DNA from: a candidate division FCPU426 bacterium
GTDB lineage: Bacteria > Oederibacteriota > Muellerivitia > Muellerivitales > Muellerivitaceae
Reading direction: 5' to 3'
Length of the DNA: 64,000 nucleotides
Assembly (NCBI GenBank): GCA_963847625.1
Contig: CAWKAR010000019.1
Coordinates: forward strand, 96,001-160,000
This document shows, piece after piece, positions 9,604 through 58,799 of the stretch; position 1 is the first letter of the stretch, and each line of letters starts with the position of its first letter. The position numbers were made by a program, and so were the translations under genes. The notes under the pieces were generated by a model that saw only the letters and a program-made list of their open reading frames with translations, was not told where the DNA came from and did not search any database.

Positions 9604-9727
9604 GGCGGCACCTCGCAAATGAATTTTTATTAGTATAACGGGAGGCCCCACCCCGATTCAAAGGTTCTTATAAATGGCTATGCATATATACATATTATGT
9701 GTTTTCACACCTCTCCAAAATAATACC

Positions 9728-10000: not shown

Positions 10001-10114
10001 GTACTTGGTTTTGCTTAACGCCTTTAAGACCTAAGAACACCTGATTTTATTTATCATTGTTTCTTGGAATTTGTTTTATGTGGACAGCTATGAAGTGATT
10101 TAATTCTTAAAAGC

Positions 10115-12076: not shown

Positions 12077-12094
12077 TGGACGAAGAATAAGAAA

Positions 12095-12382: not shown

Positions 12383-12486
12383 TTGTCTAAACCCCAAAGC
12401 GTTTCTCCCTGTGGAGCCGCAATTATTTCAGGCTCCCCAAAAAAATATATCTTATAAGGGAATTCACACCTGTCCAAAACTATACC

Positions 12487-12585
12487 TAGCCACGGATATA
12501 TGGGATTCCTGGGATTTAATAAACATAAATATTTAAAGTCTTTTGACTTTGGCCATCTGAATGCATCCCCTGAATCTGTGGCTAA
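12487..12585. repeat. Palindromic GCCACGGAT..ATCTGTGGC element
   Basis: Same family as 9728-10000; flank similarity extends over 12464-12640 vs 9706-10055. Confidence 0.8.
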
Positions 12586-12686
12586 GAACTTGGTTTTTAC
12601 TTAACGCCTTTTACAAAAAAAATTCCTGATTTTATTTATCTTTGTTTCAGGGAGTTAAGTAAGTAAATCTCTTTTATAATATTCCC

Positions 12687-13508: not shown

Positions 13509-13612
13509 GTCAATGGAATAGGAATGAAGAACAAAGGGGTCCCCGGATTCAACGATTTGCGAATCGATATGAATGGCTCCCTGCCGTTTGGACGAAATAG
13601 TCCATCCTCGCT

Positions 13613-14170
13613 TTATCTTCGCCCGGAGTCATCCTTTGATTTGGATACCCTGAATTTATAAGGCCCGATGATTTCTTGAAGCATTTCCAATTTGGGTCCT
13701 TCCATCCAGATACCACCGCACTTCTCACATTGATCCAATTCCGTCTTCCCCAACTTCACGGTTTCCATCCGCTTGCCGCAAAAGGGGCAAATGAGAAATG
13801 GCGGCTTTTTGCGGGGCTCAAAAAACGGAGGCGTTTTGTGGTTACGCTCTTCCGTCCCGGTCTGTAATTCCTTCTTCCCCTGTGGCTGTAGCTTCATCAT
13901 CACTTCACGGCGGATGCCCAATCCCTCGCACTCGGCGCAATGAAGCACCTCCTGTGTGTCCAGGGCGGCGGTATAAACCGAGATTTTGCAAATGGGACAG
14001 GAAACCGTCTTCGCCGAAACACTGGCCAATCCCCCGGTTTTAGCCAATGGCAGCCTGCAAGCGGGGCAGACACGTTCCGTACCGTTCAGGGGTTGGTCGC
14101 AGCGGGGGCATTTGGCTGAAGTGGGTTCAGGCATGGAAGTAGGTTCCCCCTTGTGATTGTTCCATTTCAC
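13613..14170 (-). CDS. Multi zinc-ribbon (zf-TFIIB-like) protein; start may be ATG 14134
   Basis: Six CxxC pairs, LDQCEKCGGIW. Confidence 0.8.
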   Translation of the reverse strand: MKWNNHKGEPTSMPEPTSAKCPRCDQPLNGTERVCPACRLPLAKTGGLASVSAKTVSCPICKISVYTAALDTQEVLHCAECEGLGIRREVMMKLQPQGKKELQTGTEERNHKTPPFFEPRKKPPFLICPFCGKRMETVKLGKTELDQCEKCGGIWMEGPKLEMLQEIIGPYKFRVSKSKDDSGRR

Positions 14171-14283
14171 TCATGGCGTTCCAGGTGACGGTGGTCGCTG
14201 GCTTTTTCCTTGCCTGCCATCATTCGGACCCCGCCACAACGGTGGCACACGAACTTCCGTTTTTTATGGGCCGAATGGGGCAT
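14167..14283 (-). CDS. Small CxxC protein, 38 aa, copy 1 (not in the ORF track)
   Basis: MPHSAHKKRKFVCHRCGGVRMMAGKEKASDHRHLERHE; GAGGGAG RBS; paralog at 23336..23449. Confidence 0.65.
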   Translation of the reverse strand: MPHSAHKKRKFVCHRCGGVRMMAGKEKASDHRHLERHE

Positions 14284-14311
14284 CTCCCTCATCTTGACCT
14301 TGTATTGCCTG

Positions 14312-14341
14312 CAGAACACGCGGCCTCCCCGCATTGGACGA
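14312..14341. repeat. 30-bp cassette-boundary site Z (variant)
   Basis: CAGAACACGCG-GCCTCCCC-GCATTGGACGA. Confidence 0.55.
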
Positions 14342-14359
14342 GTTTAGAGCTTGTCTCCC

Positions 14360-14409
14360 CAAGTGGGAATTTCTAGATTCCCACTAAGTTCCCACTTTTT
14401 CCCACTTTT
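14360..14409. repeat. Cluster of TTCCCACT repeats (3 direct, 1 inverted)
   Basis: AAGTGGGAATTTCTAGATTCCCACTAAGTTCCCACTTTTTCCCACTTTT. Confidence 0.7.
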
Positions 14410-14429
14410 GAAACCCTCTGATCCTCGTT

Positions 14430-14459
14430 ACGGTACGAGGATCTCCCCTCCGTGGACGG
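14430..14459. repeat. Partial cassette-boundary site Y (core plus right arm)
   Basis: ATCTCCCC-TCCGTGGACGG; left arm replaced by hairpin GATCCTCGT..ACGAGGATC. Confidence 0.45.
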
Positions 14460-14544
14460 CCTTTCAATGAAGAAATTATGAGAACCCGGCTCATTGACTA
14501 TCGGACGCACACGGAATAATATCCCTCAAACAAGGAGGACCCAT

Positions 14545-14865
14545 ATGCGTTGGTATCACTACGTTTCTTACTTTTTTGGCGGCGCTTTCCTCGCCAATGC
14601 GGTACCCCACTTCGTCAGCGGTATCACCGGCCACCCCTTCCAAAGCCCTTTCGCCTCCCCGCCTGGGGTGGGATTGTCCTCCTCCACCGTAAACGTGCTG
14701 TGGGGCTCCTTCAACCTCGCCGTGGCCTATTGGTTCTTGTGCCGAGTCGGGACGTTCGACCTGCGCCGGACGGTGCCTGTCCTGGTGGCGGGGCTGGGGG
14801 CGTTACTAATGGCCGTGATGCTGGCCCATGCGTTTGGCCGTTTCTACGGAGGGCTTCTCCCTTAA
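14545..14865 (+). CDS. Small membrane protein
   Basis: AAGGAGG RBS; FFGGAFLANAVPHFVSG..PFQSPFA; three hydrophobic segments. Confidence 0.8.
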   Translation: MRWYHYVSYFFGGAFLANAVPHFVSGITGHPFQSPFASPPGVGLSSSTVNVLWGSFNLAVAYWFLCRVGTFDLRRTVPVLVAGLGALLMAVMLAHAFGRFYGGLLP

Positions 14866-14968
14866 TTCGTTAAAAGTTCCCCCTTCCCACTTCTCAAGTT
14901 CCTTTTTTCCAATCCCCCTGTCACTTGCTTAAAAAATAAGGAATCAGGCACCAATATCCATTATTCCT

Positions 14969-14998
14969 TTGTCCACCTTGGGTCCCCATCGTGGACAA
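14969..14998. repeat. 30-bp cassette-boundary site A
   Basis: TTGTCCACCTT-GGGTCCCC-ATCGTGGACAA, 9 bp from the stop at 15008. Confidence 0.85.
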
Positions 14999-15007
14999 CT
15001 AAAATCT

Positions 15008-15784
15008 TTATTCTTTTGAACGCCATATACGTGCTATCAGCAATTCCATTCCCCTGATTAGCCAAAATACACAAAAAATAATTAATAAATAAACGAGAAA
15101 GATATTTGCTGAAAGAAACGGCAATCCAAGAAAACTTCCATACGCCTCAACAATATTATCGAAAGGTTTAAATTTCGGAGATTCATAAGAAGTTGCATCT
15201 TTTAATGTTTCATATTTTTCAGAACTAAAATCCTTTTTCTCACTGGCTCGAATTTCTAAATCAAGATCCTTATAAAGCCATTCACCTTTAAACCCTTTAT
15301 CTTTTCTCCAACTCCATCTGGTCCTTGATATATCGAGATAAACACCATTTTTTTCTAGTCTAAACGGACCCTTGGAATTGGGATAATGTTTGCTAAATTC
15401 TTCTTCCGTGTTATTGCTGTAATATCCCAAAGGCCCATAAAAGTATCTGGTAAAAACTTTAGGATACTTCTTTGCGCGTTCATCCGAATAATTGAGAAGA
15501 TCAAAACCTACACTTGTTTCCCCACCCTCAATACGGAAAATTAAAATCTCTTTTGATTTTTTCTTTAAGAAAACTGTTTGTATCCAATCACGTAATAAAT
15601 TATTACCATTTTTTTCAACAAGAAACGTACATGGTAGGTCGTATGACCGGCTGGGAACGGTAGCTTTTTCCAATTCACTGCGTTTATCAAAATAGTTAGT
15701 GGTATTTGTCGCAATCCATAAAACCACAAATAGAAAACTTATTAAAACAAAAGCCCTCATTGCCGTTCTGAGAAATTTCTTCAC
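15008..15784 (-). CDS. Hypothetical membrane protein (AT-rich cassette)
   Basis: 258-aa ORF with N- and C-terminal TM helices. Confidence 0.7.
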   Translation of the reverse strand: MKKFLRTAMRAFVLISFLFVVLWIATNTTNYFDKRSELEKATVPSRSYDLPCTFLVEKNGNNLLRDWIQTVFLKKKSKEILIFRIEGGETSVGFDLLNYSDERAKKYPKVFTRYFYGPLGYYSNNTEEEFSKHYPNSKGPFRLEKNGVYLDISRTRWSWRKDKGFKGEWLYKDLDLEIRASEKKDFSSEKYETLKDATSYESPKFKPFDNIVEAYGSFLGLPFLSANIFLVYLLIIFCVFWLIRGMELLIARIWRSKE

Positions 15785-15887
15785 AATTACATCTCCAATT
15801 CAATAAAGCCGGTTTAAACATAAATAATTATGAATACAAAAAAATGCCTTGCGGGTTTAACTCAAAATTTCGATACACAACCAACTA

Positions 15888-15917
15888 TCGTCCAATCAGG
15901 GTCCCCGTCGTGGACAA
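15888..15917. repeat. 30-bp cassette-boundary site B
   Basis: TCGTCCAATCA-GGGTCCCC-GTCGTGGACAA. Confidence 0.85.
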
Positions 15918-16007
15918 AGGAATAATGGTTAATGGTCTCTGCTCCACGGTGCGGAGAGTGGATCCTGACCCTGTATTTTCCGCATAGGGGCCTGCGGAAC
16001 CTAGGGG

Positions 16008-16427
16008 CTAGGTTTTCCAGGGATTGATCAGGTGGATCCCAAGCCCTTGAAAATGCCGGGTATTGCGTGTGGCTAATGTAGCTTTGCAGGCTAAAGCGAT
16101 CCCGGCGATCTGGAGATCTCGAATCTCAACCGGACGCCCTATTTTTCTTTGTTGGGCCGCGATCGAGGCGGACGCCCGGGCCGCGGCAAGGTCAAATGGA
16201 AGGACCCGGCCTTCCAAATCCTCCTCCAAAGCTTGGTTAAAAAACTCCTCCAGCTGATGCCGCCTACGCCCCCCCGCCAGGTTCTCGATGCCAAACCGTA
16301 TTTCAAATACCGTGATGGTCGTAGTCCAAACCGATTCAACGGACTGGCGATCCAACCATGAAACGATCGCAGGAACCGGTTCCCGAAGCATCAATGTGGA
16401 AAGGATATTCGTATCGAGCAGGATCAT
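16008..16427 (-). CDS. vapC: PIN-domain toxin (VapC/FitB family)
   Basis: MILLDTNILS, FEIRFG, DLQIAGIA, LATRNTRHF. Confidence 0.93.
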   Translation of the reverse strand: MILLDTNILSTLMLREPVPAIVSWLDRQSVESVWTTTITVFEIRFGIENLAGGRRRHQLEEFFNQALEEDLEGRVLPFDLAAARASASIAAQQRKIGRPVEIRDLQIAGIALACKATLATRNTRHFQGLGIHLINPWKT

Positions 16428-16675
16428 GGGACCAGATCGGCGGGCTGGGCTTGTTGGCCCCCCAATTCGGGGATTTCCTGGGTCAGCCCTATCTTGGCAA
16501 ACCGCGCCTTAAACCTGGCGCCCAATGGTGTGGGGACGCGGCCCCCATCCTTCCCTACCGCGTTTCTCAAGATATCCCGCACTTCTTCCTCCGTGCTGTG
16601 CCCATTCTTCCGGGCCCTTTGGCTCAGTTTCATCTTCACGCCGTCATCTAGATTCCGAACGATAATTTGGGCCAT
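16424..16675 (-). CDS. FitA-like ribbon-helix-helix antitoxin
   Basis: MAQIIVRNLDD..RARKNGHSTEEEVRDIL; ATGA overlap with the toxin. Confidence 0.9.
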   Translation of the reverse strand: MAQIIVRNLDDGVKMKLSQRARKNGHSTEEEVRDILRNAVGKDGGRVPTPLGARFKARFAKIGLTQEIPELGGQQAQPADLVP

Positions 16676-16702
16676 GGGTTCCCTCTGCGAAGTAGGGTTA
16701 AG

Positions 16703-16735
16703 TGATATGACGATATCATGATATCATGATATCAA
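16703..16735. promoter_or_regulatory. Probable TA autoregulatory operator
   Basis: Tandem palindromes GATATCA-TGATATCA-TGATATCA upstream of the antitoxin; similar to the TGCTATCA half-site bound by FitA. Confidence 0.6.
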
Positions 16736-16815
16736 TTATTTGTTATTCCCGCAAGGGGTCCAAAAACCCCTTCATTCTATGCCCCGAAAAGGGGCTGCCC
16801 CCTTTCCGTTTTTAC

Positions 16816-16845
16816 CTGTCCACGATGGGTCCCCGCAGTGAACAA
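16816..16845. repeat. 30-bp cassette-boundary site C
   Basis: CTGTCCACGAT-GGGTCCCC-GCAGTGAACAA, 10 bp from the stop at 16856. Confidence 0.85.
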
Positions 16846-16855
16846 CTTTCATATT

Positions 16856-18625
16856 CTACTTCGTGTGTTTTTCAATCCAATCGGTTGTATTTTCCAGCAC
16901 TTCCGGCGCAAATGTTCCAGGGTCATCAATCCATTCCTCTGGATCGCCTGTAATGGTGTTTTGGAGAACGTGACTCAACCCCGGGAAGACTTTGGAAGTA
17001 AATTCGGGATTCTTCCCTTCCTTTAAAGCTTTTTCGATGGCTGGAAAATTAACGTCGGGGGGAACCATTAAATCTTTCTCACCGCTTAAAGCTAAAACAG
17101 GACAAATAACCTGTTCCAAGGCAGGCCTTGGATCGTATTTCTCCCAATGTTTGTAATAAGAAAATGGATAAGGATATTCAGCCCATTTCGGCAGTGTGGC
17201 TTGAAGTTTTATTAATTCTTTAGATTTGTATTTCTTCGCCATTTCTTCCTGGATGAACTTTCTTATTTTGGATTTGGCTTCATCTTCGTTCTTGGAGCTG
17301 ACAACTTCATCCATAATTCGTTTATATATCCTTGTATTAAAAGCAATGAATTCGTCGCTACGCCTCTCCGTGTTCCAAAACCTTAGCCACTGAATAAGGT
17401 CTTGGCTTTTGCCATCCACACCGATTCCTCCCATCAAGACGATAAAGGCAACATCCTTTGATCGCGACGCTACCAGGGGCGCACTATAACTCCCTTCGCT
17501 TTGGCCGATCACACCGGCTTTAAGGGGATTCACTTCTTTTCGATTCTTCAAATATTCAAAACCGGCAAGGGCGTCGTCGGCAAAATCCCCAACTGTGGCC
17601 TTATCGAAATCTCCCGAGGAGCTTCCCACCCCGCGTTTGTCGTAACGCAATACCGCGATGCCATGCCGTGTCAGGTAGTCCGAAAGAACAAGGTGGCTAT
17701 GTGGCCAAATATAACCATCCCGGTTAGGTCTACCCGAACCAGTGATAAGTAATACCGCCGGGAAGGGTTCGCCATGCTTGGGAAGGGTCAGGGTTCCGGC
17801 CAAGGTGACACCGGCCTTTTCATTGGTAAAAGTAACCTCTTCTTCCCGGTAAGGGAAAGGCCTTTTGGGCTCATAATTCGCCGGCTGTTGGACCACCTTC
17901 CGGTTAAACTCCACAGTGAAATCAAAAACCTTCTTTTCCCCGGCCTTCCATTCCCAGGTTTTATCGGTCGTTTCCTTGTGGGAGAGGGTGACATAGAATC
18001 GCTCTTTCCATTTCGAACTATAAACCGTCGCGTGAAGCCCTTGGGTCTTGAGCTGTACGGTTAAGTTCCCAAACGCGCGCGAAGGCCCCAGCCATAAAGG
18101 CCCGTCGGAATGCGCCAAATCAATTTCCTCGTCCAGGGGCTGAATCTCAGGCAGGGTCCCCGGGGTTGAGTCCAACTGGTATTTACTCCCCGCCCAGTCG
18201 TCGTATAAAAAATCTAATTGCGCCGCGACACGGAGGATTTCGACCGGCCCAGTGGGGATGAGTGTGTACCGGATATGAATTCCGGATTTCAGGACCTTAA
18301 TCGAAGTTTTTAAGTTTGCCGATACATTATTCGGCAGGCTGGCCTTCACTTGGATATCGGGAGCTTTGCCGGTGATATCGAATGCTTGCCGGCCATTGAA
18401 GCACTGCCAGTCTTGAGATAAGTAAATCAATGGTTTTATATACATGACTTGCTTCATGTTTTCCAAAATGTTGATCGAGCCGTTGTCCAAAATTTGAACA
18501 TGAAGGGGCTTATCATCAACGGTCATGGCGCTGTTGACGGAATCCGCCCACATAAGGCTGGGGAAAAATAGGATTGTCCCGAAAAACAATATTAAAACGT
18601 ATGTGAATTTTTTATAACTTTTCAT
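16856..18625 (-). CDS. Secreted alpha/beta hydrolase with extra N-terminal domain
   Basis: Signal peptide; LAGTLTLP, ITGSG, RYDKRGVG, GQSEG nucleophile, GEKD, GLSH. Confidence 0.88.
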   Translation of the reverse strand: MKSYKKFTYVLILFFGTILFFPSLMWADSVNSAMTVDDKPLHVQILDNGSINILENMKQVMYIKPLIYLSQDWQCFNGRQAFDITGKAPDIQVKASLPNNVSANLKTSIKVLKSGIHIRYTLIPTGPVEILRVAAQLDFLYDDWAGSKYQLDSTPGTLPEIQPLDEEIDLAHSDGPLWLGPSRAFGNLTVQLKTQGLHATVYSSKWKERFYVTLSHKETTDKTWEWKAGEKKVFDFTVEFNRKVVQQPANYEPKRPFPYREEEVTFTNEKAGVTLAGTLTLPKHGEPFPAVLLITGSGRPNRDGYIWPHSHLVLSDYLTRHGIAVLRYDKRGVGSSSGDFDKATVGDFADDALAGFEYLKNRKEVNPLKAGVIGQSEGSYSAPLVASRSKDVAFIVLMGGIGVDGKSQDLIQWLRFWNTERRSDEFIAFNTRIYKRIMDEVVSSKNEDEAKSKIRKFIQEEMAKKYKSKELIKLQATLPKWAEYPYPFSYYKHWEKYDPRPALEQVICPVLALSGEKDLMVPPDVNFPAIEKALKEGKNPEFTSKVFPGLSHVLQNTITGDPEEWIDDPGTFAPEVLENTTDWIEKHTK

Positions 18626-18660
18626 AAAGCCACCCCTTTACTGTCAGAAATTGATTGCTT

Positions 18661-18690
18661 TTGTCCACTCCGGCTCCCCGCCGTGGACAA
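18661..18690. repeat. 30-bp cassette-boundary site D
   Basis: TTGTCCACTCC-GGCTCCCC-GCCGTGGACAA. Confidence 0.88.
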
Positions 18691-18709
18691 ATATTAGTAC
18701 CGGCCATTT

Positions 18710-19729
18710 TTATGGGCTGAATTTTTCCACCCGATTGTTGCCCGTATCCGAAACATAAATGTAACCAGCGCCATCCACCGCGATGAAGGTGGGAGCGTTG
18801 AAAAAACCGGGCGCGAGCCCATAGGTCCCGAATTGGGAAAGGTAGCGCCCCGAACTATCGAATACTTCCACCCGGTCATTGCCCGAATCCACCACATAGA
18901 CCTTGGCGTTGTCCGGGCTGAGGGCGACGCCGATGGGCCCGTTGAGTTGGCCGTTCCCCGCGCCTGTCCCGGTATTCCCGCCCAAATAGCCCAAGGAGAC
19001 GCCGGTGGCGCTGAAAATTTCCACACAGTTGTATCCACCGGTCGAGACGTAAAGGGTCGTGCCGGCGGAGTTCACCGCGATGTCCGGGGAGTTATAGAGG
19101 TCGCTATAGCACGACCATTGGGCCAGGTAGGTGCCCCCGCCGTTAAAGGCTTTCACCAGGTAATTGCCGGGATCCACCACATAAATGGTCGTGCCCGCCG
19201 AGTTCACCGCGATTCCCTCGGGCCCCCAATAGAACTGTCCGTTCCCGGTCCCATAAGACCCCCACTGGCCTTCAAAGGCGCCTAAGCCGCTGAAGGCCTC
19301 CACGCGATAGTTGCCGTTGTCCGCCACATAAACCGTCGTGCCGGAGGAATTCAGGGCGATGCACTGGAAACCGTTACATCCAGAAAAATTCCCGGGCCCC
19401 GACCCATAGCCGCCCCACTGGGTAAGGTAGGCACCGGAACCGTTGAGGACTTCCACCCGGCCGTTACCCTCATCCACCACGTAAAGGGTCGTGCCAGCCG
19501 AATTCACAGCGATACCCTGGGGATTGATGAACTGCCCATTGCCTGAACCCCGCGTGCCCCATTCGGCCAGATAATTGGAAGGTATGGCGGGTGTGTTGAA
19601 GGGACCTCCCGGTGACGTGTTCTTGGCGCAGGAGGAGAGTTCCAATGCCGTCCATCCCCCGCATAATAAGAGGAGCCCGGTGAATACCCGCATCATTTCA
19701 TTTCCTTTCTTGAAGTGTTCCATATTCAA
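18710..19729 (-). CDS. NHL-repeat lipoprotein
   Basis: LSSC lipobox; repeats GNGQF..P.GIAVNSAGTT.YV.D.GN.RV. Confidence 0.88.
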   Translation of the reverse strand: MNMEHFKKGNEMMRVFTGLLLLCGGWTALELSSCAKNTSPGGPFNTPAIPSNYLAEWGTRGSGNGQFINPQGIAVNSAGTTLYVVDEGNGRVEVLNGSGAYLTQWGGYGSGPGNFSGCNGFQCIALNSSGTTVYVADNGNYRVEAFSGLGAFEGQWGSYGTGNGQFYWGPEGIAVNSAGTTIYVVDPGNYLVKAFNGGGTYLAQWSCYSDLYNSPDIAVNSAGTTLYVSTGGYNCVEIFSATGVSLGYLGGNTGTGAGNGQLNGPIGVALSPDNAKVYVVDSGNDRVEVFDSSGRYLSQFGTYGLAPGFFNAPTFIAVDGAGYIYVSDTGNNRVEKFSP

Positions 19730-21714
19730 TTAAACCCAAAACGGATGCCCGCCAAAAGGGGGATATCCTGCCCGATGACGCCGTCGGCGAAGATAAAATT
19801 ATATTTCCCCTCCACGAACAGGGAATCCAAGGGGTCAAAGGGCACTTCCAAACCCGCCCCCAGAGCCATGTCGAAGTTGCCCACTTGGACGGGGCCGAAA
19901 ACGCCGCCCCAGGAGACTTCCACATCCAGCCCCGCGCCCGCCGACAGGTATGGCCTGATCCCCTTTTGAAGGAGCAGGTACCGGACCGTCGGAAGGAACA
20001 AGAGCTCGTGGTCCCCGATGGACCCCACGTAATTGGTGCCGGAATAATCGAAATCCTCCACGTCCAACTGGAGGGCCCAGCCGTCGTTGAATCCATAGCC
20101 GACGCTGAATTTCCCGCCGCTTCCCAGGCCATAGGCCGTTTGCCAATTTTGGGTTGGAAGGTCGATTCCCCCCGCCAGTTCCACGAATATATGCCCCGGG
20201 GCCGAAACCTCAAGTTGAGGCCCAAGATTTGGGGTGGTTTGGTCCCGGGATCCGGAGAAGTTGAATTTCAAACCCGTCTCTAAAACCGCATAACCGTTCT
20301 GATAGGGGTTGGTGAAATTACGGAGGTTGGACGCGTTATAGTCCTTCAGTTCAATGAATAGGTCCAAGGTTGGGTTCAAATATAAAGCCATGCCGGCCCC
20401 AAATTGCGCGGCATTATTCTCTCCATAAAAATCGGGGCCATCGGGGAATTCCAGCCCAAGCCCGCCGAACAGGTAAGGCTGGAATGGGTCGGAGATGACA
20501 AGGGTGTATTGAAGGTTCGCCAGGACCGCCCAATCCCCCGGGAATCTTTCCAAATTGGTGTAAAAGGAAAAATGATTCAGAAAGTCGTATCCGGCCGCGA
20601 TGGAAGTGGTATTGACCTGCATATCGTTGACCGTCGAATAATAGTCGCCCGAAGCTAAAGTGAATCCCAAACCCATTTTAATGAAAAAATTACCGTTGGA
20701 CGGGGGCGTTCCGCTCTTGTTATCCCCGCCGTGATCGCCCCCAAGGTCGAGGATCACCCCGGCGTTGATGGGATAATCGATGGCGATCACCTGTTTGTTC
20801 GGGTAAAAGTAGTTGGGATTACCCATGTAAAATTGGTTCTGGGCGAAGGATTCAAGAATAAAGTTGCCTTTCGCCTCGACGAATGTGCTCCAGCCCCCGC
20901 CCAGCTTTAACTGCGCACCCAGGCTTCCCTGTAACAGGTGATCGGTATTGTAGAAACTATTATCAGCAAAGACACCGACACCGGCTCCCAAATAAGGCCT
21001 GAAGGGTCCGTCTCCGAACGCATAGCGGGCCGAGAAGGTCGTTTCTAAACACTTGACCTCGTAGTTGCGTCTATAGAAAGAATCATATTGTGATAAGAAA
21101 TACATGGCTTCCGTCAACCAAAGGGACCAGTGGTCATCCCAGGCGTAACCGAAACCTAGTTCCCCTCCCAAACCCACCGTGCCGGGGTTTTTAAAGTTTT
21201 GACCGAAGAATTCCAAGCCTGGGCCCAGTTGGAACTGAAAATTTTTAAAAGGATCGTTCGGGGCCTTCGGCGTGGGAGTCGGGACCGCCAAGTCCTCAAG
21301 GGTTCCATTCGGTTTCCGATCCGGGTCCAGGTCCGGCGGTGGCGGCATTTGGGCTTCAGCCTTTCCCTCAAAATAAGCGCCATCATCGTTTCTCGGCTTC
21401 CTCGGCTCCGGTGTTTTCAGCCAATCCACGAAGCTTTTCAACCGGGGATTGTCCCCGTTTAGTTTCAGGCTCTCTTGGCATTGCGCCAGGGCATCCTGGT
21501 TATCATTCATCTGGTATGCGCAATAACCCAGCAATTGGTGGGCTTTCCAATTGCCGGGGCTCAACTGGATGGCCCGTTTCAGGTTTGTGACGGCGGCCGA
21601 ATAGTCATTGCCGTAGTATTGGCTCAAAGCCAAATTGAAATAGTCCCCGGCATCGGCCGCGAAAACATTTAAGGCCGATAGGTAGAAAAGCACCGCCCAA
21701 ACGAACCTTCTCAT
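19726..21714 (-). CDS. TPR protein with three tandem outer-membrane beta-barrel-like domains
   Basis: Signal peptide, TPR, three units with PYL.G.G motifs ending AGVILDL, TGLKFNF and AGIRFGFN. Confidence 0.75.
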   Translation of the reverse strand: MRRFVWAVLFYLSALNVFAADAGDYFNLALSQYYGNDYSAAVTNLKRAIQLSPGNWKAHQLLGYCAYQMNDNQDALAQCQESLKLNGDNPRLKSFVDWLKTPEPRKPRNDDGAYFEGKAEAQMPPPPDLDPDRKPNGTLEDLAVPTPTPKAPNDPFKNFQFQLGPGLEFFGQNFKNPGTVGLGGELGFGYAWDDHWSLWLTEAMYFLSQYDSFYRRNYEVKCLETTFSARYAFGDGPFRPYLGAGVGVFADNSFYNTDHLLQGSLGAQLKLGGGWSTFVEAKGNFILESFAQNQFYMGNPNYFYPNKQVIAIDYPINAGVILDLGGDHGGDNKSGTPPSNGNFFIKMGLGFTLASGDYYSTVNDMQVNTTSIAAGYDFLNHFSFYTNLERFPGDWAVLANLQYTLVISDPFQPYLFGGLGLEFPDGPDFYGENNAAQFGAGMALYLNPTLDLFIELKDYNASNLRNFTNPYQNGYAVLETGLKFNFSGSRDQTTPNLGPQLEVSAPGHIFVELAGGIDLPTQNWQTAYGLGSGGKFSVGYGFNDGWALQLDVEDFDYSGTNYVGSIGDHELLFLPTVRYLLLQKGIRPYLSAGAGLDVEVSWGGVFGPVQVGNFDMALGAGLEVPFDPLDSLFVEGKYNFIFADGVIGQDIPLLAGIRFGFN

Positions 21715-21762
21715 AATATTCTTCCCCTCAATAACGAACTACGTTTTATGAGCTATTAATCT

Positions 21763-21792
21763 TTGTCCACTTTGGCTCCCCGTCGCGGACAG
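21763..21792. repeat. 30-bp cassette-boundary site E
   Basis: TTGTCCACTTT-GGCTCCCC-GTCGCGGACAG, abutting the stop at 21793. Confidence 0.88.
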
Positions 21793-22782
21793 CTATTTTT
21801 TATGTTTCATCCAACGTTTCACCGAATTCACATTTTCATTATGGGCTAGGTCGCCGTTCAATTCTTTTATTCGATCTCTGCACAATTGCGTCACGACCGA
21901 ATTTTCGATAACGACGTTATCTTTGACGCCCTTGGTTTTTACCATCTCCAGAAGTCGTACCCAGGCATCGCGGTAAAGCTCCCAACCCTTCTGGTCTTCT
22001 TCTAAACCGGGATCATACTTTGGATAATTTGAAAACCCCTTATTTTGGGTTTCGAACAATTCTTTTTCTTCTATAATCTTTTTAAACGCGGTCTGGAGAG
22101 ATTTATTCAAATTTCTTCTCGCTTCTTGGCATTCCTTTAAGGTCGACACATTCAATTGACCCTTCAGCAACCAATCTTTGATCTTGTCTTGATGAAGGGC
22201 TTTCCCATAAGTATGTCTCGGGTGTTCATCGCTTATACCCAAGATATCTTCTTCCATAAGGTCCAATACAGCCCTTTTTCCATCGTTTATCTCCAGAGTT
22301 TCGGCTTCATCTTCTATGATTTTCAATTCTTTCTTCTCCATGTCATTCAAGCGGCCCTTGAAAGTTTCGACCTTTCGGTTTAATTCCTGGTCATTGAGAT
22401 CCGTTTGGATGTCGTTGCAATCATATGATTCATCACTATCCATGGGGATGTCGTTACAGGTCAATCGAGGATAGATTTTTTGGGGGGTTTTCAACCTCTC
22501 CTGAATGATCTTCTCTAGATTTTGGTATCCAACTCCCCAATAGTTGAGCTTATTGTCTGCCTCTTCGAATAGTTCCTGGGCTTTTTGGGGATTTCTTTCC
22601 ACGCCATCCCCGTTGAGATACATCAAGATGAGGAAGGGGTAACCTTTCCCAATATCATCTTTTTGGAAACAATCCATGGCTTTGGAATAATCAACAGGCA
22701 CACCGATCCCGTAATAATATTTCAAACATTCCTTATCCAGGGCTTGGAGTTTGGTCGTGACAAGAAAAAAGACCATTATCAA
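21793..22782 (-). CDS. Sel1-repeat secreted protein with DUF1311/LprI-like C-terminus
   Basis: YYYGIGVPVDYSKA, MYLNGDGVERN, QKGWELYRDAW. Confidence 0.75.
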   Translation of the reverse strand: MIMVFFLVTTKLQALDKECLKYYYGIGVPVDYSKAMDCFQKDDIGKGYPFLILMYLNGDGVERNPQKAQELFEEADNKLNYWGVGYQNLEKIIQERLKTPQKIYPRLTCNDIPMDSDESYDCNDIQTDLNDQELNRKVETFKGRLNDMEKKELKIIEDEAETLEINDGKRAVLDLMEEDILGISDEHPRHTYGKALHQDKIKDWLLKGQLNVSTLKECQEARRNLNKSLQTAFKKIIEEKELFETQNKGFSNYPKYDPGLEEDQKGWELYRDAWVRLLEMVKTKGVKDNVVIENSVVTQLCRDRIKELNGDLAHNENVNSVKRWMKHKK

Positions 22783-22816
22783 AAAAAGTGTTATTTTGGA
22801 TTTCGTAAATAGCTCC

Positions 22817-22846
22817 TTGACTACGAAGGCTCCCCGTCGTGGACAA
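22817..22846. repeat. 30-bp cassette-boundary site F
   Basis: TTGACTACGAA-GGCTCCCC-GTCGTGGACAA. Confidence 0.85.
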
Positions 22847-22857
22847 ATATCCTAAGT

Positions 22858-23235
22858 TTAAAAAGTAAAGCGTTCCTTCAACCAGGGTGGGCTCTTTTCC
22901 GTCAGGCACTGGATCACAATGACATGTCCTTCAGGGTCTTCAAAAGATACAGCCTGTAAACCCAAATGGGAGTCCGTGGGGCCGGTGAACCGGATTCCTT
23001 TTTGCTTTAGACTTGCTACCAGAGCCGGGAGGTCATCCGTGATGAAGGAAACCTGGGACTTGCCGGGTTGATGAACCGATGTATCGAAATCCACTCCAGG
23101 CCAACCCGAGTCAAAGACATTTAACCCGGCTGGTTCAGTTAGATTGAGTTTGAAGCCCAATACTTCCTCATAGAATTTCCTGCTCCCGCTTGGATCTTTT
23201 GTATAAAGCTCAACCTCATGAAGTTTGAAACGCAT
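22858..23235 (-). CDS. VOC/glyoxalase family protein
   Basis: LHEVELYTKD..SRKFYEEVLGF, FEDPEGHVI. Confidence 0.88.
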   Translation of the reverse strand: MRFKLHEVELYTKDPSGSRKFYEEVLGFKLNLTEPAGLNVFDSGWPGVDFDTSVHQPGKSQVSFITDDLPALVASLKQKGIRFTGPTDSHLGLQAVSFEDPEGHVIVIQCLTEKSPPWLKERFTF

Positions 23236-23290
23236 ATTCCCTCCTCACAAATACTTTCCCATTCATGAAAGCTTCTTCCCGACTTTTTCC

Positions 23291-23320
23291 TTGTCCACGA
23301 TGACTCTCCGCCGCGGACAA
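23291..23320. repeat. 30-bp cassette-boundary site G
   Basis: TTGTCCACGAT-GACTCTCC-GCCGCGGACAA. Confidence 0.85.
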
Positions 23321-23335
23321 CTTTAAAACCTTATA

Positions 23336-23449
23336 TCAAACCCGCTCCCGGCGACGCCGGTCGCCGGCTTTTTCTTTGCCAGCCATCATGCGGGCTCCCC
23401 CGCACCGGGGGCACACGAACTTTCTTTGTTTATGGGCCGAATGGGCCAT
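23336..23449 (-). CDS. Small CxxC protein, 37 aa, copy 2 (not in the ORF track)
   Basis: MAHSAHKQRKFVCPRCGGARMMAGKEKAGDRRRRERV; GAGGG RBS. Confidence 0.65.
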   Translation of the reverse strand: MAHSAHKQRKFVCPRCGGARMMAGKEKAGDRRRRERV

Positions 23450-23477
23450 TTCCCTCATCTTGATCTTGCATCGCCTG

Positions 23478-23507
23478 CAGAACATACCCTCACCCCGTCG
23501 CGGATAA
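23478..23507. repeat. 30-bp cassette-boundary site H (variant)
   Basis: CAGAACATACC-CTCACCCC-GTCGCGGATAA, 1 bp from the stop at 23509. Confidence 0.6.
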
Positions 23508-23508
23508 C

Positions 23509-23937
23509 CTATATTTTCTTTTTCAAATAATATCTCACATGCCGTTTTTGAAAAGGTGCCAGTTGCCCGAAAAGACGATATCCCTGTTTTTTATAAAATC
23601 CCGGGGCTTGGAAACTAAAAGTGCTTAAATAAACCTGCTTACAGCCCTTTTTTTTTGCTATAGCTTCCGCTTTGCGAAGAAGCCGTTTTCCTAATCCTTG
23701 GCCACGATATTTTCGATCGACACATAGGATATCCACACAAAGCCATCCCAAATAGGTATATCCGGTCACCCCCCCTACGAGCATTCCCTTTCCGTTTTTG
23801 GCCTCAAGGCCAACTGCCTTCCAATTTGAAATCCCGCTTTTTTTACTATTGAAAGGGCTGATTTTGCTGATGAGCTTATTTCGTAATTCCGTATATTTCC
23901 GGGGGCCAACTTGAATGATGGCGGAGGATGGCTTCAA
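23509..23937 (-). CDS. GNAT family acetyltransferase
   Basis: VDRKYRGQGLGKRLL, TFSFQAPGFYKKQGY. Confidence 0.92.
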   Translation of the reverse strand: MKPSSAIIQVGPRKYTELRNKLISKISPFNSKKSGISNWKAVGLEAKNGKGMLVGGVTGYTYLGWLCVDILCVDRKYRGQGLGKRLLRKAEAIAKKKGCKQVYLSTFSFQAPGFYKKQGYRLFGQLAPFQKRHVRYYLKKKI

Positions 23938-24025
23938 AAGATTTCTCTTTAATTTGGAATTTATCGTTTTGAATGGGTATCAAGAACCTGGATTTTGCCG
24001 CGGGCACCCCAAAGGGCTATTGCCC

Positions 24026-26098
24026 TTATTTAACGCCTGAACTTTTCTTGGCTTTTTCAAAATCGTCCTTGGACCAGACTTCCGCCACCCAATGGTTTCC
24101 GATTTTCCTGAAGGCTTTTTTGGCGTCCTTGCCCTTTTTGTTCTGGTAATCCAGCCAGGCCAGGCGGTTCCAAATATCCCAATTGTGGGGGTCCAGTTTT
24201 AAAAGCGTCTGGTAGGCTTTCACCCGTTCCTTGAACACCTTCGGTTTTTTCACGAATTCCTTCTTTTCGGAATCCTTGGAAAGCCCGTTTTGGGCCGTGT
24301 CGGAGGAGGCCAAAACCACGTAAGGATAAAGGGCCCTTAATTCCTTGTCTTTCCCGGAAATCTTCTTGGCCAAATCCAGGACAGGTTTTGTTTTTCCCGC
24401 CAGCGCCGCCCAGGCCAGATAGTTTTTCCACTCGCCGAGATCTCCCGGCGATGCGGTCAGGTAATTCCCGTAGCTCTTGGCGAAATCTTTCCAATAGGGC
24501 GAATTTTTCACTTTCTCCCGCGTCTCTTTCCGCCATTGAGCCAGTCCCGCCTCCGACTGTTCCAAGCAAAGCACGTGGAAATCAGCGGCGCATGGAATGA
24601 AAAACAAGGCGGGAAACCTTTTGTTGAACTTTCGGGCGAACTCGAACATTTCCTTCAAGGAGCCGTTCCATTTCGGATTGAGGTAATCCATGTAAACGGT
24701 GTAAGCCTCATAATCGTTGGGATCCAGCCGCAGGACTTTTCCGAAGTCATCTTTCATGGTTTCCTTGGCCAGTTCCGCCGCGTTGCCGTAGGCCACCAGT
24801 TGGCCCCAGGCCCTTCCGTAATGCGGGGTCAGGTCGACAGCCTTCTGGGCGTATTTCAAACTCTCCTCGACACGCTTTTTAAAAAGTTTCAACGCCTTCG
24901 GCGGGACGTCCCTGGTCCAATCAGTGCCCCGAGCCTCCCAGGCCAAGGAAAGCGTCAGTTGGGCCAGTTGAATCCAGGCGTTGGGGTTTTCCGGATGCGA
25001 TTGGGTCCAGTTTTTCAACAGCGTGACGGCTTCATCGTTATAGCCTTTGCCCTCCAAGGAGTAGGCGGCATAACGGTACCAATCGGGATTGTCGTTGTCC
25101 CTTTGCAACTCCTCCAGGGACAGTTTCAGGGCTTCGTCGTACTTTTTCAGCGCGTAAAGCTCGTAAACGTAGTCGAACTTGTAAAAGGAGTTATCCGGGT
25201 ATTTCCGGACGAGCGGTTCGATCATGTCCAGATGGTTGGTCCGCTCCCGGAAGTCCGAAATTCCAAGCCAACGGTCGACCAAATAGTGGCACTTGGAGTT
25301 CTTGGCGAGGATATTGTCCCACTGGTTCACTAATGAATATCCGCCCTGCCGGATCAGGCTTTCCAGGAAGGCTGTGCGTTCCAAATCCTTGTCGTTTAAG
25401 AACACGGGGCGCTTCAAGAAAGCCGCCTGTCGCGCGTTGGGTTTGAACCCAACCCAGTCATGGAGGCGGGAAGCCATCCAGCCCGGCGCCGAATGAAGCT
25501 GATTGGCCGTGAATTTTTTCTTGTATTTTTTCAGTGGATGGGAGCCGGTAAAACTCAAAGTGATGGTGTAACCCGTTTTCGCCCGGACCAAGGTTCCACT
25601 CGCGTTATCCGGGGTCGCGAACATGTAAGCCAGTTGTTTGGAAAATTGCTCGTGATATTGCCCGAGCGCCGAGTCGAACAGCCTGAAGTTCTGGAAAAGG
25701 GTGCCGGCGTTGGGCAGGTCAAAAATAGATTCAGGAAGGTAGGTCGCCTGCTCCATGGCCAAGTAACTCAGAAAACTTCCCAGGGCGTTAATCCGGCCCA
25801 TTTTGTCCTTGAGGGGGAAAATCAAGGGGCAATGCGGGAGGGTTTGCCCTTTAACCCGGATGTCTTCGATCATATTGATTATTTCTTGGCTGGGGCGCTG
25901 ACCCTCGGGCGCGGCTTCTTCTTGCTTCTTTTTTACCAGTTCCCTCTCACGAATGGCCTGATCCTTTTCCCTGGCGGATTTCAAAATTCTGGCCGCTTTT
26001 TTCTCGATTAGAACTTGCTTTTGATGGATGTAACCAAGCTCGGCGGCTATAACGATGGCGCCAATTCCCACGGCGATAAAAATGAGTTTCCAATCCAT
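24026..26098 (-). CDS. Membrane-anchored TPR protein (DUF4034-like)
   Basis: N-terminal TM, TPRs, LAWEARG and LNPKWNGS motifs. Confidence 0.75.
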   Translation of the reverse strand: MDWKLIFIAVGIGAIVIAAELGYIHQKQVLIEKKAARILKSAREKDQAIRERELVKKKQEEAAPEGQRPSQEIINMIEDIRVKGQTLPHCPLIFPLKDKMGRINALGSFLSYLAMEQATYLPESIFDLPNAGTLFQNFRLFDSALGQYHEQFSKQLAYMFATPDNASGTLVRAKTGYTITLSFTGSHPLKKYKKKFTANQLHSAPGWMASRLHDWVGFKPNARQAAFLKRPVFLNDKDLERTAFLESLIRQGGYSLVNQWDNILAKNSKCHYLVDRWLGISDFRERTNHLDMIEPLVRKYPDNSFYKFDYVYELYALKKYDEALKLSLEELQRDNDNPDWYRYAAYSLEGKGYNDEAVTLLKNWTQSHPENPNAWIQLAQLTLSLAWEARGTDWTRDVPPKALKLFKKRVEESLKYAQKAVDLTPHYGRAWGQLVAYGNAAELAKETMKDDFGKVLRLDPNDYEAYTVYMDYLNPKWNGSLKEMFEFARKFNKRFPALFFIPCAADFHVLCLEQSEAGLAQWRKETREKVKNSPYWKDFAKSYGNYLTASPGDLGEWKNYLAWAALAGKTKPVLDLAKKISGKDKELRALYPYVVLASSDTAQNGLSKDSEKKEFVKKPKVFKERVKAYQTLLKLDPHNWDIWNRLAWLDYQNKKGKDAKKAFRKIGNHWVAEVWSKDDFEKAKKSSGVK

Positions 26099-58427: not shown

Positions 58428-58488
58428 CCGTAAACCGGCTAAAAAAACGAATCACCAGCCGTCAAAAACATGACCGCCGGCACAAATA

Positions 58489-58724: not shown

Positions 58725-58799
<75 letters not shown>

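Follow-up and report, generated by a model that had tools for sequence, protein, structure and literature searches.

The stretch of DNA analysed here (the window, 64,000 nucleotides) is best explained as follows: a gene-cassette system spans the whole family, and the window holds one of its many arrays that have no recombinase of their own. On balance, and with a probability of roughly 0.55, we favour the reading that this system is integron-like and that its arrays are served in trans by SR-280, a serine recombinase of ~280 amino acids (aa) found in five genomes, this one included, where its gene lies at the outer edge of a single array. Dozens of swappable single-gene cassettes are kept by this uncultured family of peat and soil bacteria in rows, with a conserved 30-bp site between neighbours, in the manner of integrons but with unrelated parts.

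The initial annotation had placed nine 30-bp sites in the array, and all nine 30-mers are present where it located them (Table 1). Seven are canonical and lie on the + strand, matching the pattern TTGTCCAC-N3-GGNTCCCC-N3-GTGGACAA with no more than the three mismatches allowed; shuffling the window 100 times yielded no match to this pattern. The two outer sites, at 14312 and 23478, are hybrids in which a site-like core and right arm are joined to a non-site left arm (CAGAAC...). They score below 14 bits against a position weight matrix (PWM) built from 179 sites and occupy the ends of a 155-nt direct repeat, whose copy at 23343..23497 has the truncated start of a small ORF that is intact at 14167-14334. 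The partial site reported at 14430 was likewise recovered. Six sites, rather than the seven originally counted, lie within 0-19 bp of a stop codon, all of these stops being on the minus strand (gaps of 9, 10, 19, 0, 11 and 1 bp), and the site at 15888 is 90 bp from such a stop. Each interval does hold one gene or one coupled pair, with all but one on the minus strand, and base composition differs as described, cassette GC lying between 33% and 57%, with a window value of 50.6%.

Table 1. Features of the cassette array in the window, with the Xer-like candidate gene of the same analysis in the last row.
Feature	Position	Strand	Remarks
Hybrid end site, downstream array boundary	14312..14341	+	Left arm CAGAACACGCG non-canonical; core and right arm site-like
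Partial site	14430..14449	+	Right half only (TCTCCCC-TCC-GTGGACGG)
Small membrane-protein ORF	14494..14865	+	No Pfam family; only reversed cassette gene
Canonical 30-bp site	14969..14998	+	0 mismatches
Cassette ORF, 258 aa	15008..15784	-	No Pfam family; cassette 33% GC
Canonical site	15888..15917	+	Left arm CCAAT-type
Toxin-antitoxin cassette	16008..16675	-	PIN toxin 16008-16427; FitA-like antitoxin 16424-16675
Canonical site	16816..16845	+	
Alpha/beta hydrolase cassette ORF, 589 aa	16856..18625	-	
Canonical site	18661..18690	+	0 mismatches; core GGCTCCCC
Two-gene cassette	18710..21714	-	NHL-repeat protein 18710-19729; TPR plus barrel-like protein 19726-21714
Canonical site	21763..21792	+	Abuts next ORF's stop codon
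Sel1/LprI-domain protein cassette ORF	21793..22782	-	Cassette 41% GC
Canonical site	22817..22846	+	
Glyoxalase/bleomycin-resistance fold cassette ORF	22858..23235	-	
Canonical site	23291..23320	+	3 mismatches; core GACTCTCC
155-nt direct repeat copy	23343..23497	.	Ends in CAGAAC left arm; 81% identical to 14177-14331
Hybrid end site, upstream array boundary	23478..23507	+	Left arm CAGAACATACC
GNAT acetyltransferase	23509..23937	-	Abuts hybrid site
Xer-like candidate, 345 aa	G000:C60:99799-100836		Order-specific, single-copy

In the consensus, positions 1-14 mirror positions 17-30 and the symmetry is broken only by the central T15-C16. The site forms a 14-2-14 dyad, and the asymmetric TC at its centre hardly varies, occurring in 170 of 179 sites and, in a second count, in 228 of 232. 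Most of the proposed asymmetric 8-bp core is thus part of the dyad, and the loxP/FRT-style layout of arms around an 8-bp spacer gives way to one typical of serine recombinases. Sequence conservation ends exactly at the 30-bp limits, and within the site the right arm is conserved far more strongly than the left. At none of the 14 arm pairs does complementarity depart from what column shuffling predicts (179 sites), so the arms show no covariation, and folding is clearly better than that of shuffles (z <= -2.3) in only three of the nine window sites. We consider that the site is probably read by a protein as double-stranded DNA rather than as a hairpin. Neither a conserved U-tract-like flank beside the site nor a match to an Rfam family was found.

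Scanning this genome and its relatives with the PWM, as the initial annotation had suggested, revealed further co-oriented arrays. There are 52 matches in this genome, in clustered, co-oriented arrays, against 0 in the reversed genome, and a chance origin of the sites is excluded genome-wide. Of 24 family genomes sampled, 21 carry the site, as do all six further family genomes searched, and a genome may hold as many as 98 copies; the sister family has one true site, and the 15 other genomes of the phylum yielded none with the core. On independent metagenome contigs, neighbouring sites are co-oriented in 157 of 158 cases.

Cassettes consist of one gene or one coupled pair, with a median length of 931 bp; the stop codon and the site are ~18 bp apart, and the following start codon lies ~45 bp past the site. 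The longest ORF runs opposite to the + reading of the site in 150 of 159 unique cassettes, and cassettes are oriented the same way in 134 of 140 cases on independent metagenome contigs. Their 296 ORFs fall into 234 clusters, and the cargo comprises toxin-antitoxin pairs, GNATs, enzymes and unknowns. Several cassettes recur without change: L046 and L059 lie on separate contigs of G002 and match at 100% over 1275 bp, L045 (G002) and L048 (G045) are 100% identical over 1020 bp, and a 920-bp cassette has four 100% copies within G045. Identity between L045 and L048 begins at site position 12 on the left and stops at position 28 on the right; since cassette identity stops within the site, each arm travels with its own cassette. 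A peat-metagenome contig has the window's toxin-antitoxin cassette together with the left arm and core of the site at 16816 and diverges after site position 19, and homologous pairs show arm linkage in the same direction (18 left-anchored, 23 right-anchored). Together these comparisons show that the cassettes are compact, diverse and mobile and that exchange occurs in mid-site, mapped as closely as positions 12-19, so that the left arm stays with the left cassette and the right arm with the right. Identical cassettes and breaks within the site both lend support to the proposal of a modular array of mobile cassettes bounded by a recombination-type site; neither excised circles nor deletion junctions were seen.

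As the initial annotation noted, no recombinase lies beside the array in the window, and the same holds for 42 other arrays; the enzyme would therefore act in trans. That part of the earlier proposal stands, but its assignment to the tyrosine recombinases is not supported as worded, as the only site-linked recombinase is a short serine one. In this genome the SR-280 gene lies on contig C61, outside the window. Pfam assigns it Resolvase and Recombinase domains and no Zn_ribbon_recom domain, the protein ending just before the zinc-ribbon/coiled-coil part of large serine integrases. In family genomes, a site-like sequence comes after each short copy or fragment of SR-280 detected, namely a full + site 8-57 bp downstream in seven of eight and a left-half hybrid in G018, and two metagenome contigs show the same gene-then-site arrangement; none of four full-length paralogues is followed by a site. 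No half-site was found within 1.5 kb upstream of any of the five intact genes, or within 9-10 kb upstream in G000 and G002. The flanks of SR-280 are non-homologous between genomes, and dN/dS is 0.09-0.23 in four pairs. Genomes with intact SR-280 contain 31, 59, 60, 60 and 74 sites, as compared with a median near 9 in the 26 without, a link for which genome size, assembly quality and shared ancestry are confounders. Both genomes that hold 100%-identical cassette copies have SR-280.

Each cassette is bounded on both sides by half of a 30-bp double-stranded site, and from these observations we propose that SR-280 would bind the two 14-bp half-sites and cut at the central TC. In large serine integrases, efficient exchange takes place only with parallel alignment relative to the central dinucleotide, the zinc-ribbon domain recognises a 9-bp motif in the distal part of a 25-bp half-site and the coiled-coil sets direction, according to the available text of PMC3783163. 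The asymmetric TC would similarly impose polarity, so that direct repeats would excise a circle with one site, which could re-enter at any other site. Without a coiled-coil there would be no attP/attB direction control, and identical sites would recombine both ways. With its gene at the outer edge of a single array in each genome that has it, SR-280 would serve the other arrays in trans, much as an integron integrase can do for integrase-less attC clusters.

Intact SR-280 is present in only five of 31 family genomes, and in six array-bearing genomes no serine recombinase of any kind was found (sites, completeness: G006 40, 98%; G011 24, 99%; G022 40, 90%; G023 47, 89%; G016 26, 89%; G003 12, 98%). 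G001, from the window genome's own genus, contains 26 sites and just the full-length paralogue. Half of integrase-less attC clusters sit in genomes without IntI, as given in the available part of PMC4889954; by analogy, this precedent may excuse, rather than explain, the missing SR-280.

The main rival to SR-280 is an Xer-like tyrosine recombinase acting in trans, which would treat the sites as dif-like targets, strong in the right arm and weak in the left, with the cassettes as Xer-exploiting modules. We judge this unlikely. Orthologues of the candidate (Table 1), at 54-76% identity, were recovered from 23 of the 24 family genomes sampled as well as from the sister family; outside the order, matches have only 25-36% identity and often number two per genome. 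The candidate's gene is set among housekeeping genes in partly conserved synteny, the best solved relatives of the protein are XerA and XerD, and among recombinases it alone is present in all site-rich genomes. The better conservation of the right arm also recalls pdif sites, whose XerD arm is conserved and XerC arm less so in the text available from PMC6449649. However, the Xer-like gene never adjoins a site (in G000 nothing site-like lies within 2 kb) and also occurs in genomes with 0-1 sites (G008, G017, G020 and G024), while its co-occurrence with the site reflects a single lineage-level event. The lone sites of low-count genomes have a cassette-like, horizontally acquired context, not a dif-like one, and the dyad symmetry reaches the 2-bp centre, which a 6-8-bp spacer would not require.

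Less probable still is that SR-280 is a selfish passenger beside the site, with cassettes reshuffled by another enzyme or by slow homologous recombination between the 30-bp repeats. Two other mobile elements do target the site: in at least six places a group II intron without an ORF sits 1 nt past it, and IS110 copies abut its left arm; moreover, most array-bearing genomes are without SR-280. Yet a serine recombinase that inserts itself at the site must recombine it and hence also act on neighbouring direct repeats, the family-wide constancy of 30 specific bp and the central TC calls for a sequence-reading protein, and no other candidate was found to recur near the 43 arrays.

A REP, terminator or operator palindrome, lying between accessory genes by happenstance and without a recombination role, is already disfavoured and very improbable. 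The site is an intergenic palindrome just past stop codons, and the genome encodes three REP-associated-transposase-like Y1 proteins, but the hairpin flanking the Y1 genes is another one (GTTTCGGC...GCCGAAAC) and the sites are clustered and co-oriented, unlike REPs scattered in both orientations. The lack of arm covariation, the poor folding of many sites, the absence of a conserved U-tract-like flank, the breaks in cassette identity within the site and the lack of an Rfam match also argue against this reading. A divergent classical integron or integrase-less attC cluster (CALIN) has a negligible probability: architecture and cargo are integron-like, but the best match to the integron-integrase model reaches 45 bits against a cut-off of 265, the site has one inverted-repeat pair in 30 bp without the R''/L''...L'/R' layout or structural covariation (attC features as given in the available text of PMC8352920), and exchange is central, not at one site end.

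Comparison with known systems also upholds the earlier view that the array is distinct from attC integrons and XerCD-pdif modules, and the site itself is not an attC, pdif or REP. Like integrons and CALINs, the arrays are rows of compact, mostly promoterless, co-oriented single-gene cassettes with diverse cargo and a site after each; one array is recombinase-linked and many are not, and a group II intron and an IS110-family element parasitise the site. IS1111-attC elements likewise target the attC sites of integrons. Group IIC-attC introns target them too, as described in the available portion of PMC3001079. Unlike in integrons, IntI is absent here and the site is a putative 30-bp double-stranded one, in contrast to the folded single strand of attC and its R and L boxes; with exchange in the site centre, each cassette has half a site at either end. 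Moreover, the linked serine enzyme is convergent with the cassettes at the downstream end, whereas the integron has a divergent tyrosine enzyme at the promoter end. Acinetobacter pdif (XerC/XerD) modules similarly are short accessory modules (toxin-antitoxin, Sel1 genes) bounded by a dif-sized site with one arm well conserved and the other less, the recombinase being encoded elsewhere, to go by the same text (PMC6449649). However, pdif sites are 28 bp (11-6-11) and inverted around the module (XerC/D then XerD/C), whereas the sites here are 30 bp and in direct orientation, the arrays are chromosomal and number in dozens, and the arm sequences show no resemblance.

Large serine integrases (A118, Bxb1, phiC31) have catalytic and recombinase domains in common with SR-280, and their att sites consist of inverted half-sites with an asymmetric central dinucleotide that sets polarity, again as available from PMC3783163. 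They differ in the zinc-ribbon/coiled-coil that SR-280 is without and in half-sites of 20-25 bp as against 14 bp here; the partner sites here are all alike, so there would be no attP/attB distinction. The staphylococcal cassette chromosome (SCC) comprises tandem cassettes integrated by the Ccr serine recombinase, and some SCC elements without their own recombinase depend on one in trans. SCC elements, however, are tens of kilobases long and lie at one chromosomal site, unlike the cassettes here, and Ccr proteins are large serine recombinases of full length, unlike SR-280, which scores weakly against the NCBIfam Ccr models (70 bits, cut-off 900). The hix/gix sites of Hin/Gin resemble the present ones in their inverted half-sites, of ~12 bp, around an asymmetric 2-bp crossover, but these ~190-aa proteins with a C-terminal helix-turn-helix invert one segment, need an enhancer and build no cassette arrays.

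Several genes of the window array have counterparts elsewhere. Relatives of the PIN/FitA-like cassette occur in other arrays and genomes. In G001, the homologue of the small membrane-protein ORF is inverted relative to a half-site, the locus matching the GNAT gene retains only a short remnant, and a homologue of the alpha/beta hydrolase ORF with 83% nucleotide identity lies elsewhere in the genome.

The nine 30-mers listed in the initial annotation were all verified in the window sequence, at the positions claimed for them. Seven of the nine, every one in the + reading, fit the pattern TTGTCCAC-N3-GGNTCCCC-N3-GTGGACAA with at most three mismatches, and the same pattern gave zero matches in 100 dinucleotide-preserving shuffles. 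The two outermost sites are hybrids that combine a site-like core and right arm with a left arm starting CAGAAC, and each lies at the end of one copy of a 155-nt direct repeat (81% identity between copies); a small ORF starts within this repeat and is complete at the left copy only. Six sites, rather than the seven originally counted, lie 0-19 bp from a stop codon, beyond minus-strand stop codons. GC content lies between 33% and 57% in the individual window cassettes; that of the window as a whole is 50.6%.

Locations of the array, its cargo and other features mentioned in the text (G, sampled genomes, G000 being the genome under study; C, contigs; L, extracted array loci or contigs)
Feature	Location	Strand	Remarks
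Window	G000:C19:96001-160000
Cassette array	window 14312..23507
Hybrid sites	window 14312; window 23478
155-nt direct repeat	window 14177-14331; window 23343-23497
Orphan membrane protein	window cassette	+	sole + gene of the cargo
AT-rich orphan	window cassette
PIN/FitA toxin-antitoxin pair	window cassette
Alpha/beta hydrolase	window cassette
NHL plus TPR/barrel pair	window cassette
Sel1/LprI protein	window cassette
Glyoxalase	window cassette
GNAT	window cargo
417-aa tyrosine integrase	window 58820-60073	-
tRNA genes beside it	window about 58351-58799		Val, Cys, Gly
Dispersed repeat segment	window about 9700-10100		~400 bp
SR-280 gene	G000:C61:35482-36312
Xer-like gene	G000:C60:99799-100836
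Recombinase-in-trio type element	G000:C20:38768-42101; L026:12641-15923 (G001)
Y1/DnaA-C-like genes	G000:C24:99789-101625; C39:22484-23886
Group II intron	L090:10001-10830		also L063, L076, L048, L089
IS110-family copies	L063; L076		cassettes 11847-13714 and 10001-12012
Lone Cas1 gene	L031:5133-6173
Interrupted glycosidase gene	L118:8505-13663 (G025)
Integrase island	L116:1787-15760 (G004)

Across the 179 distinct sites from which a position weight matrix was built (threshold ≥14 bits), information content is restricted to 30 positions and is zero in the flanks. The site is a 14-2-14 dyad, in which positions 17-30 mirror positions 1-14 around T15-C16, and the central TC is present in 170 of the 179 distinct sites and in 228 of 232 sites on independent metagenome contigs. 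The left half is much less conserved, non-consensus bases reaching 32-51% at positions 8-11 versus 12-27% at the mirror positions. Complementarity between mirror positions equals the expectation from column composition in shuffles for 14 of 14 pairs, folding is clearly better than shuffles in only three of the nine window sites, and an Rfam search of window positions 13000-25000 returned zero families. The lack of excess arm pairing, the poor folding and the absence of an Rfam match therefore indicate a double-stranded site whose sequence is read by a protein, and not a hairpin. Inverted half-sites around an asymmetric 2-bp centre are the layout of serine-recombinase crossover sites and, judged from its sequence, the 14-2-14 dyad fits such a site, with putative cleavage at the TC.

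Scanning the genome and its relatives, as the initial annotation had proposed, revealed further co-oriented arrays in G000 and sites family-wide. The matrix gave 52 matches in the 4.43-Mb genome compared with 0 in the reversed genome and, besides a few singletons, these form co-oriented clusters on contigs C3, C13, C16, C19, C20, C21, C55, C61 and C63. A REP element, for which palindromes scattered genome-wide in both orientations would be expected, was rejected since the sites are instead clustered and co-oriented. Relatives were scanned with an arms-only pattern (two or fewer mismatches), which matched in 21 of 24 sampled family genomes, at a maximum of 98 places (G019), and at 2-74 places in each of six further family genomes. 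The one genome representing the sister family contains a single true site, and in 15 other genomes of the phylum the arms-only matches were all without the core. In a 19-mer scan of 185,579 species genomes, the arrays among the matches listed came from the lineage of G000 only; at least about 10 isolated matches outside this lineage were discounted, as the full site is absent and their number is close to chance by our own estimate. The viral contigs searched for the site gave no match.

G000 and 42 non-redundant loci yielded 180 inter-site segments (161 unique), with a median length of 931 bp. The longest ORF runs opposite to the + reading of the site in 150 of 159 cassettes, and the median gaps are 18 bp from stop codon to site and 45 bp from site to next start codon. 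The 296 cassette ORFs fall into 234 clusters; Pfam assigns them to toxin-antitoxin pairs of many types, GNATs and varied enzymes, with numerous orphans, and also detects invaders (group II intron, IS110, IS66, IS30-like elements and IS200). On metagenome contigs, neighbouring sites are co-oriented in 157 of 158 cases and cassettes have the same orientation in 134 of 140. On contig C2 of the related genome G002 (2.05 Mb), 19 of 19 sites left of 1.203 Mb are '+' and 7 of 7 right of 1.231 Mb are '-', dnaA being located at 1.460 Mb, while site polarity on other contigs is nearly uniform (21 to 1, 13 to 1 and 9 to 0). Given this polarity relative to dnaA, the cassette genes seem to be co-directional with replication.

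In the congeneric genome G001, the window cassettes that encode the hydrolase and the toxin-antitoxin pair are situated at other loci; the G001 locus that matches the right flank of the window contains degenerate sites only, plus an inverted copy of the membrane-protein gene. Two loci on different contigs of G002 (L046 and L059, assigned to this genome by coincidence of their coordinates with G002 matches) are 100% identical over the whole 1275 bp from site to site and have unrelated flanks, and a 920-bp cassette occurs as four 100% identical copies in G045. A further cassette is common to different genera, with 100% identity over 1020 bp between L045 (G002) and L048 (G045). At the left site of this pair there are differences at positions 1 and 8-11 and identity from position 12 on, and at the right site identity extends up to position 28, with differences at 29-30. 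Similarly, the window toxin-antitoxin cassette recurs at ~95% identity, with its left arm and core, on a peat-metagenome contig; beyond site position 19 this contig diverges and has another right arm and another neighbour. In both cases identity ends inside the site. In homologous pairs anchored on the left (18) or on the right (23), the variable positions of the left arm track the left-hand cassette, and left-arm identity is at background level relative to the right-hand cassette. These borders between identity and divergence imply exchange inside the site, at positions 12-19, and hence half a site at each cassette end. The geometry deduced in this way is Cre/lox-like or serine-recombinase-like, unlike that of the integron, in which crossover occurs at one attC end and the cassette carries nearly the whole site at its 3' side, whereas here the arms segregate with different cassettes. 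Four peat runs yielded only short, low-depth contigs of the window, from which no circles, joints or deletions were reported.

The array had been described as distinct from attC integrons and XerCD-dif modules, a separation that is upheld by the absence of IntI and of an attC layout, a length of 30 rather than 28 bp, and co-orientation. A search of the whole G000 assembly (94% complete) with TIGR02249 (IntI) gave a best score of 45.3 bits versus a cut-off of 265. Unlike attC as outlined in PMC8352920, the site has 30 conserved bp, a single inverted pair and no excess arm pairing. The pdif site, in the description available from PMC6449649, comprises 28 bp (11-bp XerC arm, 6-bp centre, 11-bp XerD arm), whereas the present site has 30 bp and a 2-bp centre; flanking sites of pdif modules are inversely oriented, whereas 157 of 158 neighbours are co-oriented here and all seven canonical window sites are +. 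In REP/RAYT systems palindromes flank the RAYT gene, whereas the RAYT-like genes here have a different hairpin. The system thus works like an integron with integrase-less attC clusters, yet lies outside that class by every defining test run, and it likewise falls outside pdif modules and REPs by the tested criteria. Large serine integrases are close mechanistic relatives, having domains and a central dinucleotide in common with it, and SCC/Ccr cassette arrays and Hin/Gin sites are also counted among the nearest. A lexical search of open-access text found no description of the 30-bp site or of a serine-recombinase cassette array.

We consider it a little better than an even bet that the cassette recombinase is SR-280, a serine recombinase of ~280 aa with a site beside its gene. 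In G000 its stop codon lies 8 bp before a + site that opens an array. Homologues (71-81% identity) are present in G002, G018, G042 and G045; fragments were detected in G019 and, twice, in G042. A site-like sequence follows 8 of 8 copies or fragments in family genomes, in seven of them a full + site 8-57 bp downstream and, for the G018 copy, a left-half hybrid; two metagenome contigs have the same arrangement, one with its site in the opposite reading. Sites are absent from the neighbourhood of all four full-length (~510-aa) paralogues. No half-site was found within 1.5 kb upstream of five intact SR-280 genes, nor within 9-10 kb upstream in G000 and G002, and the flanks are non-homologous between genomes. 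From the site after the gene, the lack of an upstream half-site and the non-homologous flanks, we conclude that the SR-280 gene borders one array in each genome on its outer side, downstream of the cassettes and convergent with them. The four pairs that aligned cleanly gave dN/dS values of 0.09-0.23, which indicate purifying selection.

A cognate serine recombinase beside the site is a feature of crossover sites that is present here; the zinc ribbon and coiled-coil of the large serine recombinase (integrase) family are absent from SR-280. Pfam detects Resolvase and Recombinase domains only, to which the 507-aa paralogue adds Zn_ribbon_recom, and SR-280 stops short of that zinc ribbon, its alignment breaking off just before the CxxC region. 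In the account of serine integrases drawn from PMC3783163, the recombinase and zinc-ribbon domains jointly read a 25-bp attP half-site (the zinc ribbon its distal 9-bp motif), the coiled-coil controls direction, and exchange is efficient only if alignment is parallel relative to the central dinucleotide. We infer from this account that a protein without zinc ribbon and coiled-coil should recognise a shorter half-site and be able to recombine two identical sites in either direction. Such a shortened protein would provide what a 14-2-14 site whose TC is fixed requires if cassettes are to shuffle freely.

The five genomes with intact SR-280 contain 31-74 sites versus a median near 9 in the other 26, an association for which genome size, assembly quality and relatedness are confounders, and SR-280 is present in both genomes that hold 100% duplicate cassettes. 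It is missing from most array-bearing genomes, and no serine recombinase of any kind was found in G006, G011, G022, G023, G016 and G003 (12-47 sites; 89-99% complete). Half of integrase-less attC clusters are reported from genomes without IntI (PMC4889954); they offer a precedent for the missing SR-280 by analogy rather than as evidence. SR-280 might alternatively be a passenger that targets the site, although such a passenger would still have to recombine the 30-bp site itself.

The tyrosine recombinase acting in trans that was originally proposed, with none adjoining the array, survives in part. Action in trans stands, as clustering of 450 ORFs flanking 43 arrays revealed no recurrent recombinase; the tyrosine class gave way to SR-280 as the preferred candidate. 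Other readings take up the probability left beside SR-280 and a single-copy 345-aa Xer-like protein, which we regard as an unlikely cassette recombinase. Orthologues of the latter (54-76% identity) occur in 23 of 24 family genomes and in the sister family, giving order-level co-occurrence with sites, and outside the site-bearing order Xer-type matches reach only 25-36%, often with two per genome. However, the gene is never near a site, and the surroundings of the lone sites in G025 and G024 are cassette-like, which argues against a dif function. The gene is in partly conserved housekeeping synteny, and the protein may represent a single-recombinase Xer system of this order; GC skew in G000 is noisy and does not place the terminus.

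The remaining candidates were rejected: an integron integrase is absent from G000; tblastn of 25 G000 recombinase proteins against 67 array loci detected only the recombinase-in-trio element of L026 and the Y1 genes of L028, neither of which recurs near arrays; eight paralogous ~370-aa tyrosine integrases, four abutting tRNA genes, are ordinary tRNA-island integrases without nearby sites and with homologues outside the order; a 341-aa tyrosine recombinase (L092) occurs in only 3 of 25 family genomes; and the RAYT-like Y1 proteins have their own, different REP hairpin beside their genes. The trio element consists of three tandem tyrosine recombinases; in G001 a copy next to an ArdC gene is separated by 1 kb from the upstream end of an array, the G000 copy being 25 kb from the nearest site. 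Three ~315-350-aa proteins combine a REP-associated-transposase-like Y1 domain with a DnaA-C-like domain; the hairpin GTTTCGGCGGATGGTAAGCCGAAAC lies beside two of their genes, flanking the C24 gene as an inverted pair, and these genes belong to a separate REP/RAYT-type system. The 417-aa tyrosine integrase of the window adjoins tRNA genes and probably marks the end of a genomic island separate from the array.

To our knowledge, integrons are the textbook, and almost the sole accepted, dedicated platform for single-gene capture. We assign a probability of about 0.5 to the overall reading that a family of uncultured peat and soil bacteria captures genes by a logic convergent with that of integrons but with entirely different parts: a double-stranded 30-bp site would be cut at its central TC by a minimal serine recombinase, in effect a large serine integrase that has lost its direction-control module; each genome would have one recombinase-linked array and dozens without a recombinase that are served in trans; array polarity would be tied to replication direction; the site would have its own guild of targeting parasites (group II intron and IS110 element); and identical cassettes would be moving between genera at present. 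If this is true, cassette-array genetics arose more than once, and tools keyed to IntI/attC miss such systems entirely. It would also provide a natural minimal serine recombinase that works in both directions on identical 30-bp sites, with a bearing on direction control by the zinc-ribbon/coiled-coil module of serine integrases, and would explain the movement of accessory genes, among them toxin-antitoxin pairs, hydrolases and acetyltransferases, from genus to genus in a soil lineage of which little is known; one cassette is 100% identical in two genera.

An ORF-less group II intron of ~830 bp, in which Rfam recognises D1-D4 and domain V, is located 1 nt after the site in at least six places, in the sense of the cassette genes. 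Its insertion beside the site accounts for the rare 'A' at site position 1 and parallels the group IIC-attC introns of integrons. An IS110-family element with a DEDD transposase is represented by two 1.4-kb copies, 99.7% identical, each of which stops exactly at the left arm of a site, suggesting that this element targets the site.

In G042, G045 and one metagenome contig (L245, L246 and L156), the interval that separates the SR-280 stop codon from the neighbouring site contains a conserved 13-bp palindrome, TCAGTAGTACTGA, with the variant TCAGTATTACTGA in L156; the palindrome is absent from this interval in G000 and G002. One inter-site segment, in a long array, encloses a lone Cas1 gene (346 aa). 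In the sister-family genome G025, a GH31 glycosidase gene is interrupted by a 3.4-kb insertion that carries the sole site of this genome, two cassette-like genes, a HEPN/nucleotidyltransferase pair and an IS; this insertion resembles cassette DNA that has come in from the family bearing the sites. A 14-kb island in G004, with a ~370-aa integrase, a DNA methylase, a helicase and an HNH gene, is bounded on one side by a degenerate site and on the other by the only array of that genome, an arrangement we read as coincidence. Finally, the ~400-bp segment at about 9700-10100 of the window has dozens of 75-94% identical copies across G001 and looks like a MITE-like dispersed repeat.
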